Positions 7,430-10,893 of a DNA stretch of 31,002 bases are shown here, one piece after another. Position 1 is the first letter of the stretch. Each line of letters opens with the position of its first letter. Source of the stretch: a virus (lineage: Duplodnaviria > Caudoviricetes); the IMG/VR virus record IMGVR_UViG_3300005611_000133, positions 1 to 31,002 of that record; one strand, given 5' to 3'. A program made the translations under genes and the position numbers. The notes under the pieces are model-generated. The model saw only the letters and a program-made list of their open reading frames with translations. It searched no databases and was not told the origin of the DNA.

Positions 7430-7592
7430 GACTTATTTCACAAAGATAAAGGCAGACATAAAAACCCACGGCAAAGAAAAGGCTATGGAAATGTGGCGGG
7501 AACATAAAAAAGAACTTGCCCAAGTGCACACTGCGGCATTTATGGAAAAGATAAAGGCCGAATTTGAGTTATTAAAAAAAGGACAATCATGA
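7404..7592 (+). CDS. Hypothetical protein (62 aa)
   Basis: ATGA overlap with the following gene. Confidence 0.65.
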   Translation: MNLAKNYAKTYFTKIKADIKTHGKEKAMEMWREHKKELAQVHTAAFMEKIKAEFELLKKGQS

Positions 7593-7957
7593 GCAGATTT
7601 GACGCATTAACACCACCTGAAAAACCCAGCTTTAACGAACTGGAATACCAGGTTAGACACTGGGCTGAAAATAAGGGCATTTTTGACAAATCAACCGCGT
7701 TAAAGCAGTTTGAAAAAACGTGCGAGGAAATGAGGGAACTGGAGGAAGAGTTATGGGCAATGAGTAAGGGTATAGGTGATATGTATGATTTGCTTAGTGA
7801 AACAGGCGACGTACTCGTAACGCTGATTAATATGCTCGCGCTGACAGACGATAAGTTCACATTAACCGACTGCCTTGAAATTGCGTATAACAAGATCAGC
7901 AAGCGCACGGGGGCAATGGTGGATGGTAAATTTGTTAAAGATGGCAAGCAGGCGTGA
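7589..7957 (+). CDS. MazG-like nucleotide pyrophosphohydrolase
   Basis: KTCEEMREL, ETGDVLVTL, CLEIAYNKISKRTG..DGKFVK. Confidence 0.85.
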   Translation: MSRFDALTPPEKPSFNELEYQVRHWAENKGIFDKSTALKQFEKTCEEMRELEEELWAMSKGIGDMYDLLSETGDVLVTLINMLALTDDKFTLTDCLEIAYNKISKRTGAMVDGKFVKDGKQA

Positions 7958-8505
7958 AAGTTACTATCCAAAAAATATATCCTGAATGGTTGCCAAACCG
8001 TATGGCAGAGATGACGACCCACGGAAAGGTAGTTAAAGCACCCAAATCGTTTTGGTTTAAATCCGAGCATAGTCCGATTCGTGGTTTTGAGTATTGGATT
8101 GAGTTTCACGACCTGCCGACTTTTGTATCTGTTCATTTTGTGCGCCATAAGTTCGGCGTGGAGCATTTTGTTAAAAGCAATCGTGATGATTTGTACCTGG
8201 ATAAGCATGTTGTGATTGACCGTAACAGCCCTGTAAACCATGGAATGAAGATTAATGCACAGGCTTTGATCACGATGGGGCGTAAAAGACTATGCTATAA
8301 AGCCCATATAAAGACCGTAGCGGCATTTAGGAAGATGGTTAAAGGGTTGGGTAGGGTTGAGCCTGAAATCGCTAAATACATCGTTCCTGAGTGTGTTTAT
8401 AGGGGGTTTTGTCCAGAGGGTAAGGAATGTAAGCCTGGCGTTGAAAAAGTTATGCGGGCTTATGCGGATTATCCGCCCAGGCCTTTAGAAAAGGGGATAA
8501 AATGA
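7954..8505 (+). CDS. thyX: FAD-dependent thymidylate synthase-like protein
   Basis: EHSPIR, VSVHFVRHK...SNR, NAQAL, RLCYKA, PECVYRGFCPE. Confidence 0.75.
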   Translation: MKVTIQKIYPEWLPNRMAEMTTHGKVVKAPKSFWFKSEHSPIRGFEYWIEFHDLPTFVSVHFVRHKFGVEHFVKSNRDDLYLDKHVVIDRNSPVNHGMKINAQALITMGRKRLCYKAHIKTVAAFRKMVKGLGRVEPEIAKYIVPECVYRGFCPEGKECKPGVEKVMRAYADYPPRPLEKGIK

Positions 8506-10061
8506 GAGTTTTAAGTTTATTTGATGGTATATCTGCTGGACAGCTTGCTTTAAAAAGGGCGGGGATTACCGTTACAAAATACTATGCAAGTGAGATTGAT
8601 AAGCACGCGATAGCCATTACACAATACAACTTTCCTGAAACTATCCAGCTGGGTGACGTAACTAAGTGGCAGGATTGGGATATTGATCAGCCGGACATTC
8701 TACTTGCCGGATTTCCGTGTCAAGCGTGGTCAACAGCAGGCAAGATGCAGGGAGATAACGATCCACGAGGCGCATTGGTGCATGACTTGATTGCGGTGTG
8801 GAATCACTATAAACCAAAGTGGTTTTTGTTTGAAAATGTCAAGATGAAAAAAGAGTTTATGACATACATCAATGATTTGTTTGGTGTGGAAGGATACCTG
8901 ATTAATTCTGCGTTAGTAAGCGCTCAAAACAGACAGCGTTATTACTGGTTTGGAACAACTACAAAAAAACATATTTTTGATTTTGAAATTTTAGATGGTG
9001 AAAAGCGTGACACAAAAGAGATCGGAAGAATACAAAATGAATCACAGGATTCGAGAGAAAGCGAGATACTGGGAGAAGCACAAGGACGATACTGCTATTT
9101 GCAAGATTTGTGGGAAGGAATATCTGAAGATAAACCGCAAGGGAACTACAAAGACATGCTCAGAAAAATGCTCTATTCAAAACAAGAAATTGACAGACAA
9201 AAATCGGAACAAGAAAAAACGGGACGAATATCAGAAGAAATACAACTTAAAAAACAAAGAAAAAATACTTGCCTATCAAGCGAGGTACAGAAAGTCAGAA
9301 AAAGGCAAGGAGGTTATGCGAAAAATGGATGCACAACCTCACAGGAAAATAGCAAAAAGCATGAGAACCCATGCAAGGAGGCAGATTTCTGGGCTGTCAA
9401 ACAAAAAAATAACAAGGGAAGATATAGAGACAATACTAAAGATGAAGTCGGAATGTGTAGTATGCAAGACAAAGAAGGATTTATGTATAGATCATGTGAT
9501 TCCACTATCTCTAGGTGGAACGAATTGCTTGAACAATCTACAAATACTTTGCAGGGCGTGCAATTCATCGAAAAAAGACAAAACAATGGACGAATTTATG
9601 GTTTATTTGAGTACAACATAGAAAGGATAGAGTTAGAGCAACCAGAAGATAAAGGGATTTTATTAAAGGATGTTGTCGAATGTGATGCTGTTAGAGATAA
9701 GTCAAAGACGGTTCGAGTTGGTGGACGTGGTTCACCACAAAATTCTAAACAGGAATGGGATGGGGTTGAGTATGTTGACAGAGATAAATCATACTGCATT
9801 GATGCCAACTACCACAAAGGCGGCAATCCTGAGCAATATTTTACAAAGAAGCGCAGACAATTGGTGTTTAAGAATCCAAAGGTATTGGTAGATAATCCAA
9901 GAGTTAAAGGGGTTACCGAGGATGAGCGAGGCTTTAGACCGCATAGAGGAGATTCAAGAAAAAGTGGGGTATCAGAAATTGGAAGAATATTAAAGCCGTC
10001 TGCGGATAAGACGGACACGTTAATAGCGTCACATCAACCAAAGGTATTAATAGATGATTAA
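8502..10061 (+). CDS. C5-cytosine DNA methyltransferase, N-terminal part (motifs I-VIII, long insertion, variable region)
   Basis: LSLFDG (I), GFPCQ (IV), ENV (VI), QNRQRYYW (VIII); motifs IX-X missing from this ORF. Confidence 0.9.
   Translation: MRVLSLFDGISAGQLALKRAGITVTKYYASEIDKHAIAITQYNFPETIQLGDVTKWQDWDIDQPDILLAGFPCQAWSTAGKMQGDNDPRGALVHDLIAVWNHYKPKWFLFENVKMKKEFMTYINDLFGVEGYLINSALVSAQNRQRYYWFGTTTKKHIFDFEILDGEKRDTKEIGRIQNESQDSRESEILGEAQGRYCYLQDLWEGISEDKPQGNYKDMLRKMLYSKQEIDRQKSEQEKTGRISEEIQLKKQRKNTCLSSEVQKVRKRQGGYAKNGCTTSQENSKKHENPCKEADFWAVKQKNNKGRYRDNTKDEVGMCSMQDKEGFMYRSCDSTISRWNELLEQSTNTLQGVQFIEKRQNNGRIYGLFEYNIERIELEQPEDKGILLKDVVECDAVRDKSKTVRVGGRGSPQNSKQEWDGVEYVDRDKSYCIDANYHKGGNPEQYFTKKRRQLVFKNPKVLVDNPRVKGVTEDERGFRPHRGDSRKSGVSEIGRILKPSADKTDTLIASHQPKVLIDD
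8995..9621 (+). CDS. HNH endonuclease nested in the +1 frame of the methyltransferase
   Basis: CVVC...IDHVIPLSLGGTNCLNNLQILCRACNSSK; N-terminal CKIC...CSEKC Zn-finger-like region. Confidence 0.88.
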   Translation: MVKSVTQKRSEEYKMNHRIREKARYWEKHKDDTAICKICGKEYLKINRKGTTKTCSEKCSIQNKKLTDKNRNKKKRDEYQKKYNLKNKEKILAYQARYRKSEKGKEVMRKMDAQPHRKIAKSMRTHARRQISGLSNKKITREDIETILKMKSECVVCKTKKDLCIDHVIPLSLGGTNCLNNLQILCRACNSSKKDKTMDEFMVYLSTT

Positions 10062-10377
10062 AGACAAATCTCAAACAATACTCGCAACAATTTACAAAGA
10101 AAATGCAAAATCAATGATTAAGCGTAAGAAATGGGGGTTATTAGTGCCAGATGAACTAGAAGAACTTAAATACAGAAAATTAACACCTATAGAGTGTGAA
10201 AGATTACAGACGATGCCGGATAACTATACGGCTATGGGTAATTATGATGGTGTTATTAAAGAGGTGAGCAATACTCAGCGCTATAAAGCTATTGGGAACT
10301 CATGGACGGTTGACGTGATAGCGCATATATTCACATCATTATCAGAAATGTTGACAAATGAAAAAAAGAAAGCATAA
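10054..10377 (+). CDS. C5 methyltransferase C-terminal part (motifs IX-X)
   Basis: RKLTPIECERLQTMPDNYT and RYKAIGNSWTVDVIAHIF; 8-nt overlap with the upstream ORF. Confidence 0.88.
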   Translation: MIKDKSQTILATIYKENAKSMIKRKKWGLLVPDELEELKYRKLTPIECERLQTMPDNYTAMGNYDGVIKEVSNTQRYKAIGNSWTVDVIAHIFTSLSEMLTNEKKKA

Positions 10378-10400
10378 GCTAGTCGATAAGTGTACACGAT

Positions 10401-10433
10401 GCGAACGGGTACAGCACCCGCTTTGCGTTTTTT
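10401..10433 (+). terminator. Candidate intrinsic terminator
   Basis: CGGGT-acagc-ACCCG stem (extendable) followed by a T-rich tract, at the end of the replication/metabolism block. Confidence 0.45.
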
Positions 10434-10548
10434 GTGGGGCTAAGAATGGGTTTAAGTTATTTAAGCAAATAGCGGATAAATAAAAAGTTGATAAAAGGTT
10501 GACTATAATTTAAAATGGTGGTAATAAATAATTTAAGGCTAACTAATT

Positions 10549-10893
10549 ATGGGTAGAAAAGAGATACCAATTGATATAGATACGGTTAGAAATTTAGCAT
10601 CAAGGGGATTGACTCACGAACAAATAGCCGCAGCACTGGGCATTAATCCTGAAACTTTATACGCTAGAAAAAGAAAATATTCCGAGTTTGTCGATGCAAT
10701 TAAAGAAGGTCAGGGCAAAGGACTTGCGGATATAAGTAATGCGCTGTATGAACAGGCTATGGGCGGAAACACTTCAGCGGCAATATTTTATATGAAAAAT
10801 AGAGCAGGCTGGAGAGATAGACCAGCGGAGGAAAATCTAGTCGGCGACATGGCGCAGGCCTTGAGTAAAATCGCAGACAAATTACCGGATTGA
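10549..10893 (+). CDS. terS: Terminase small subunit (HTH)
   Basis: HTH GLTHEQIAAALGINPETLY, AAIFYMKNRAGWRD; upstream of the large terminase. Confidence 0.8.
   Translation: MGRKEIPIDIDTVRNLASRGLTHEQIAAALGINPETLYARKRKYSEFVDAIKEGQGKGLADISNALYEQAMGGNTSAAIFYMKNRAGWRDRPAEENLVGDMAQALSKIADKLPD

Follow-up and report, generated by a model that had tools for sequence, protein, structure and literature searches.

The window, by which we mean the whole 31,002-nt stretch of DNA analysed here, is a 31-kb record of a tailed phage with a completeness of approximately 69% (the tool's estimate). It encodes a recombinase, a primase-polymerase, MazG-like and Thy1-like proteins and a methylase, followed by terminase, capsid, and tail genes; the methylase is the final gene ahead of the terminase small subunit gene, which comes directly after it. 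The Thy1/ThyX-like protein is short (183 aa; 7954-8505), its gene overlaps the methylase start by 4 nt, and its Pfam match (E 4e-4) is under the cut-off. An antisense ORF of 233 codons (minus strand, 7540-8241) that runs across the MazG-like and Thy1-like genes is probably a shadow frame. The methylase locus and its immediate downstream region contain the following features:

8502..8948, + strand: N-terminal host part of a C5-methyltransferase, motifs I-VIII (FDGISAG, catalytic GFPCQ, FENV, QNRQRYYW; Pfam PF00145)
8949..9006, + strand: 5' flank of an insert; as methylase-frame sequence, it forms the outgoing strand of a predicted beta-stalk (residues 145-162; junction compared with empty alleles, AlphaFold)
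8995..9621, + strand: nested HNH endonuclease gene in the +1 frame, 208 aa from ATG 8995 or 204 aa from GTG 9007 (Pfam HNH_5/HNH)
9006..9584, + strand: methylase-frame reading of the HNH gene, approximately 193 aa, stop-free and predicted to be disordered (stop count; AlphaFold)
9585..9638, + strand: 3' end of the insert, the returning strand of the predicted beta-stalk (residues 365-375), overlapping the HNH C-terminus and stop (AlphaFold; junction comparison)
9639..10061, + strand: host sequence resuming at QPEDKGILLKD, then a variable (target-recognition) region of shuffled modules; ORF1 stop at 10061
10054..10377, + strand: ORF2, completing the variable region and carrying motifs IX-X (RKLTPIECERLQ, YKAIGNS; Pfam PF00145 positions 248-323)
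10406..10430, + strand: hairpin resembling an intrinsic terminator, upstream of the terminase small subunit gene (consensus scan only)

Layout of the methylase and its nested gene

ORF1 (8502-10061; 519 aa) matches Pfam DNA_methylase (E 8e-37). Its N-terminal part has a DNMT3-like fold (Foldseek E 1e-15), and the closest empty, i.e., insert-free, allele to this part is that of L004 (73%). Motifs I, IV (PC), VI (ENV), VIII, IX, and X of C5-methyltransferases are all found, with IX and X located on ORF2 and not on ORF1. The first-pass annotation had described the methylase as uninterrupted; this is correct across the insert, where the frame is open, but not for the gene as a whole, since motifs IX-X lie on a separate ORF (10054-10377).

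The insert measures approximately 670 nt and is located directly 3' of motif VIII. In the window, 230 residues separate motif VIII (R.R.YW) from the QPEDKG block, vs 6 to 8 residues in empty methylases (77 readable loci), so that the 2 blocks are indeed nearly adjacent in relatives, as had been anticipated. From this gap and a comparison of the junctions with those of empty alleles, the insert therefore extends from about 8949, which is 46 nt ahead of ATG 8995, to a 3' boundary between about 9612 and 9638. Of 263 related methylase loci, we considered the best 80: one belongs to a variant of the window phage, and the insert is absent from all 77 readable loci among the other 79 (the junction of L005 is diverged; L010 and L013 are truncated at contig ends).

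The ORF at 8995-9621, in the +1 frame inside the methylase frame, encodes an HNH endonuclease as originally proposed (HNH_5, E 7.5e-13), without a single methylase-frame stop over 208 codons; its PHROGs match is endonuclease VII/HNH. The protein has an N-terminal CxxC...CSxxC zinc motif, a basic middle part, and a C-terminal HNH core (DH...N...N, CRxCN). Core residues are invariant in 7 of 7 copies, and both the catalytic residues and the DNA-binding extension are intact in the window copy. The same HNH protein is also encoded by contigs L084, L087, and L093, which argues against an assembly artefact. While 8995 to 9621 correctly delimits the HNH ORF, the element is larger than had been suggested, given that the insert starts at about 8949, and judging from the sequence the HNH start may be GTG 9007 instead of ATG 8995. 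This alternative start agrees with the N-termini of homologues, has a candidate Shine-Dalgarno-like word (GGTGA) upstream of it in the 5' flank of the insert, and adjoins base 9006, where the predicted disorder begins. No sigma-70-like promoter was found on the + strand within the insert (8949-9621); the region has 9 such sites, vs 6.7 +/- 2.8 in shuffles. In L083 (947-1642), there is no ATG at the usual HNH start and the HNH frame is open upstream across the flank and motif VIII; an earlier start may be used there.

The variant of the window phage, L001, agrees with the window from 8344 to 9795, after which the variable-region modules diverge. In both variants, ORF1 terminates at a common short block and ORF2 begins with the identical ATGATTAAA, with an AAGGT word ahead of it, despite different frame relations between the 2 ORFs (+1 with an 8-nt overlap in one, -1 with an ATGA overlap in the other). 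Since the frame relation is not the same, a programmed frameshift fusing ORF1 and ORF2 is disfavoured, and the common ORF2 start fits better with a small subunit translated on its own, as in M.AquI. From the gene layout, ORF2 is likely the small subunit of a two-chain methylase, and the enzyme of the window phage probably consists of chains of 519 and 107 aa. M.AquI, according to the part of the source that is accessible (PMC3404938), has motifs I-VIII as well as a portion of the variable region on one of its chains, and the remainder with motifs IX-X on the other, and C5 methylases accept breaks in the proximal variable region, with fragment complementation. The chain division of M.AquI corresponds to that predicted from gene layout for ORF1 and ORF2. 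A difference is the nested nuclease of the window, as none is described in that part of the source for the two-chain C5 enzymes M.AquI and M.EcoHK31I. Target-recognition modules are rearranged between the otherwise identical phage variants (window 9800-10200 vs L001 1450-1850); the module junctions carry a 27-nt repeat (9876/10038), and ORF2 of L001 encodes 134 aa.

It is unlikely that the window methylase is instead a pseudogene in decay, with a break ahead of motif IX and an open frame that was recently inherited, within a family that is otherwise as described below. All its catalytic motifs are intact, 2 variants with different variable regions have kept the ORF2 start and AAGGT word in different frame relations, and M.AquI, in the accessible part of PMC3404938, is a natural two-chain C5 enzyme divided in the same region. 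What speaks for decay is that ORF1 is without motifs IX-X, while in the close relatives P0002 and P0003 motif X is part of a single methylase chain, and that one copy of the element, L096, shows that the methylase frame can break.

Splicing signals, stop codons, and the translated insert

The observations that the insert lacks intein splice residues and that its flanks are too short for a group I intron core both hold up. Around the HNH gene, the insert has flanks of 46 nt (5') and <20 nt (3'), too little space for an intron core; the HNH stop of L089 and L090 is followed directly by the host QP codons. Rfam gave no match at E<=5 over 8400-10600, the insert region folds no better than shuffles (z = -0.51), and the consensus energy from RNAalifold is just -11.9 kcal/mol, to which covariation contributes unfavourably. 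A group I/II intron was rejected for these reasons. Inteins have C/S as first residue and N/Q as last, followed by C/S/T (PMC11855218). The junction residues do not follow these rules and the methylase-frame reading of the insert has no match to any family above the cut-off and no Hint/intein domain, so that an intein was rejected as well.

A stop appears in the methylase frame wherever T, as the last base of an HNH codon, is followed by a codon starting with AA, AG, or GA. None of the 55 stop-risk positions in the window copy ends in T, vs 20.9 expected from the window codon usage (P 3.6e-13); the stop-codon avoidance that the first-pass annotation had proposed to look for is therefore pronounced. 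T is not depleted at the non-risk HNH sites (39/84 vs 32.6 expected). Over the 208 HNH codons, no stops are observed, whereas 2000 synonymous recodings averaged 20.6 and never had fewer than 8; the third frame across the HNH region has 19 stops, and 20 window genes read in equal frame geometry have 11.4 stops per 100 codons, with a longest open run of 97 codons. The recodings and control genes together rule out that the open frame is a by-product of codon usage. Six other full-length copies, with HNHs that are 52-63% identical to that of the window, contain 0, 0, 0, 0, 0, and 1 stops, vs approximately 18 expected. The methylase frame across the insert is kept open by selection.

Nucleotide identity at the three HNH codon positions is 0.69/0.75/0.47 (7 copies), i.e., the HNH frame carries the main constraint, and the methylase frame is therefore overprinted on the HNH gene and not vice versa. 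The dual frame is real, but the earlier description of an HNH gene overprinted in a methylase needs to be reversed. Identity in the methylase frame is 0.36 vs a null of 0.31, an excess that is confounded by incomplete synonymous saturation. A conserved QF column is a product of the search pattern (ascertained) and was hence excluded as evidence.

In the AlphaFold model of window ORF1 (53 sequences), the motif VIII strand is prolonged to residue 162 and a strand returns at 365-375; residues 169-361 are disordered, with pLDDT <50 across nearly all of them, and the returning end of the insert has block means of pLDDT of 65-87. The insert (approximately 225 residues) is thus predicted to be a disordered loop on a beta-hairpin stalk. 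Of 46 inserts, 40 have two CxxC motifs, one located in the 5' flank and the other in the methylase frame. The first precedes the HNH start in the DNA copies with a clear start, and the second is formed in the methylase frame from the codons of the HNH's own CxxC. The final methylase-frame Cys is kept in 6 of 7 DNA copies, with a variable overlapping HNH residue (N, P, S, F, N, A; five types), and L090 retains the methylase-frame CxxC though its HNH has lost a Cys there. The 6 inserts in which both CxxC are missing are the window copy, P0002-P0004, and 2 deletion forms; in the insert/HNH tree, the full-length ones trace to a single event, and this tree is compatible with gain of the clasp as well as with loss. 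A model of P0005 has knuckle-like beta-bridges at both CxxC, where confidence is modest (pLDDT about 57-71). The CxxC/CxxC pair is probably a four-cysteine clasp in most relatives, though not in the window lineage, and would bind zinc.

The stalk and the methylase-frame cysteines are of use only in an insert that is translated and retained, which supports translation of the insert. Together with the absence of an Rfam match, a conserved RNA structure, and an intein domain, they agree with the initial inference that the host gene is spared without splicing. It is very unlikely that the insert is removed by unrecognised RNA splicing, protein splicing, or ribosomal bypass with the open frame being incidental. 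Such removal would bring to mind the HNH ORFs that occupy insertions in conserved genes as part of phage group I introns; in addition, six bases of the W codons are paired with the QP codons across the insert in RNAalifold, the insert begins near a Cys in some relatives, and P0036 has a weak intein match, at another place in the gene. Besides the Rfam, folding, consensus, Hint, and 46-nt flank results above, however, an RNA intron or bypass has no need for stop avoidance over 200 codons or for cysteines in the methylase frame.

Distribution and mobility of the family

With the methylase-frame insert as query, 44 proteins were recovered: the window phage's own variant, 40 other methylases with the full insert at the identical site, 1 N-terminally cut piece, and 2 in-frame shortened forms. 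Such protein matches necessarily lack stops. With a DNA pattern for the HNH end, itself designed from methylase-frame proteins, we obtained 14 loci across three collections, representing 8 distinct elements. All 14 sit in a C5 methylase at the same insertion site, and the methylase frame is stop-free in 13 of them (7 of 8 distinct elements). Homologous inserts that routinely carry methylase-frame stops, named beforehand as an observation contrary to read-through, are thus not what is seen. The one exception, L096, has a single TAA (1762-1764) in the methylase frame, with an intact HNH and diverged methylase motifs. A downstream ORF of 345 aa could begin at GTG 1816 in L096, and the enzyme there may be two-piece or dead.

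Shortened forms occur as well. In L088 (about 810-1000), the nuclease was lost via two separate frame-keeping deletions, with the stalk flanks retained and both CxxC pairs gone. P0043 and P0044 are mini-elements with an in-frame nuclease deletion and retained stalk flanks, and P0043 also retains both CxxC. The catalytic G.PC is present in 40 of 44 invaded N-terminal parts (strict pattern). An HNH profile search found only 3 called proteins at E<=1e-20, vs 41 methylase-frame proteins with the full insert, and gene callers therefore overlook the nested gene. Scans of IMG/VR with the HNH alignment, P0046, and P0047 gave no further family member; in the weak matches L101, L102, and L002, the equivalent frame contains stops. 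In the annotated phage collection, no cultured carrier was found, since the long methylase has no match with 80% coverage and every HNH match has <60% identity. Among the invaded methylases, P0036 has its weak intein/LAGLIDADG match in the N-terminal part (residues 80-389), and P0038 and P0041 have long N-terminal extras too.

A quick-search tree of the host N-terminal parts (54 empty and 40 invaded) requires 5 changes of the invaded state, with 32 of the 40 invaded methylases on one branch; the empty alleles in our trees were drawn from the vicinity of the window phage only. In a subset tree (14 invaded, 20 empty), the window methylase clusters with the empty alleles L004/L005 (99/96), and a single clade of invaded methylases is rejected (p-AU 8.7e-5), the rows having been selected after the first tree was seen. 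The window insert clusters with those of P0002-P0004 (support 99), whose hosts are placed elsewhere in the host tree. Near-identical inserts (99-100%) are found in hosts that are just 69-83% identical; in 2 such pairs, the hosts are fully identical over the final 26 residues ahead of the site, as co-conversion would give, though this stretch is conserved anyway. Lower divergence in the insert than in the host, together with scattered spread, is what homing would predict. The patchy tree could also come from repeated precise loss of the insert. Insert and host identities are correlated (Spearman 0.64), and this and the 32 of 40 on one branch indicate that much of the history is co-descent.

Long co-descent of insert and host within one large branch would also suit a domesticated HNH that acts as a partner of the methylase, in a restriction-modification-like or addiction pair that is linked by nesting and does not home. 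Two HNH homologues carry the source label "McrA", which is a generic name for HNH proteins of such type. We regard such a pair as quite unlikely. The same HNH is found with different target-recognition regions (window vs L001; P0008/P0011), i.e., the nuclease stays constant while the specificity modules vary, and this counts against a cognate nuclease/methylase pair, the alternative that the first-pass annotation had put forward. Moreover, the nuclease has been deleted and the methylase kept in L088, P0043, and P0044, and related methylase loci that are readable at the site (77, from the best 80 of 263) are insert-free.

The family combines a dual frame, a fixed insertion site, selection against stops, and scatter among empty alleles. 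The last two fit the idea, raised from the window alone, of a homing-type element that spares its host through a stop-free frame, and we consider it likely that the insert is a splicing-free homing HNH insertion behind C5-methyltransferase motif VIII that is read through as a loop. The HNH would be translated on the methylase mRNA from an internal start of its own (ATG 8995 or GTG 9007) and, in co-infection, would cut insert-free methylase alleles near the motif VIII codons, with repair copying the insert in. The site would be tolerated because it is at the entrance to the variable region, where, in the accessible part of PMC3404938, C5 enzymes accept breaks. In the methylase frame, the ends of the insert may have been adapted so that they close the loop, by the beta-stalk (two copies modelled) and, in most relatives, the zinc clasp. 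After nuclease decay, in-frame deletions would shrink the loop, giving forms such as P0043, P0044, and L088.

Relation to other out-of-frame nucleases

A hidden out-of-frame HNH, the ShiLan domain, has been described in the gp65 methylase of Mycobacterium phage ShiLan (Arsenault, Gosselin, Gogarten 2025, PMC11855218); an earlier source also treats ShiLan-type hidden HNHs (Gosselin 2023, PMC9957025). The traits of the ShiLan type, an HNH ORF in another frame, a stop-free host frame, no intron or intein signature, and disjunct spread, are all found in the window. Both HNH ORFs are on the same strand as the phage DNA methylase and fill an insertion in it, and both host-frame peptides are predicted to be unstructured and away from the core. 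The two layouts are also alike in being known from computation and not from laboratory work. By contrast, the ShiLan host is an N6/N4 methylase (PF01555) and that of the window a C5 methylase, the HNH frame is +2 in ShiLan and +1 in the window, and the HNH type is HNH_3 vs HNH_5. BLASTP of the ShiLan HNH against that of the window aligned no more than a zinc motif of 28 aa (E 0.009). Homology to the ShiLan HNH, a +2 frame, and an N6/N4 host, which mark the ShiLan family proper, are thus all lacking, and given the other methylase class, frame, and HNH type, the window element represents an independent lineage. By its sequence features, it works like ShiLan but falls outside the ShiLan sequence family.

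Other cases share parts of this arrangement. Pacc40 gp60 has an out-of-frame endonuclease ORF in a phage methylase gene (PMC11855218), but it is a fusion of a helicase and an N4/N6 methylase with the insertion in the helicase part and a +2 frame, vs C5 and +1 in the window. Another such ORF is reported for Applejack gp54/gp55 (PMC12613952), and its likeness to the window concerns this layout. Inteins with out-of-frame or antisense homing endonucleases exist as well, as stated in a preprint (bioRxiv 10.1101/2025.01.02.630785). They resemble the window in that the insert is translated and stop-free and conceals the endonuclease in another frame; those inteins, however, excise the insert by a splicing domain, and none was found in the window insert.

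In the literature searched, which included few subscription papers, we found no C5 hosts or cysteine clasp, and the read-through strategy appears in a 2025 computational paper and a genome announcement, both on mycobacteriophage methylases; the ShiLan GitHub supplement may list C5 hosts. PMC11855218 contains no statistical stop-avoidance test, host-frame cysteine clasp, or deletion forms, all of which the window family provides. New relative to that paper are therefore the statistical test of host-frame selection, the amino-acid-level constraint on the passenger frame, and the natural deletion forms.

We give an even chance to a broader interpretation, in which a third route beside introns and inteins exists for a gene-sparing homing endonuclease. 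The passenger frame would be a self-closing module, made of a stalk and mostly a four-cysteine zinc clasp that derives partly from the nuclease's zinc-finger codons read one base off. A full cycle of invasion, decay, and mini-element would take place in C5 methylases, near-invisible to gene callers, and the clasp-less lineage of the window would show that the stalk alone can suffice. If the read-through strategy holds for this lineage, selfish drive can give rise to dual-frame coding across 200 codons in AT-rich phage DNA and let it persist, an unannotated nuclease lies concealed in many "long" C5 methylases of phages in databases, and large fusions to a C5 methylase have a natural position at the insertion site. 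With its empty, invaded, and deleted alleles and its clasped and clasp-less forms, this small system makes the absence of splicing directly testable. In ShiLan itself (gp65/gp67; L097 4786-8059), the methylase looks split too: a separate downstream ORF carries the sequence that matches the N6_N4_Mtase profile in its C-terminal part.
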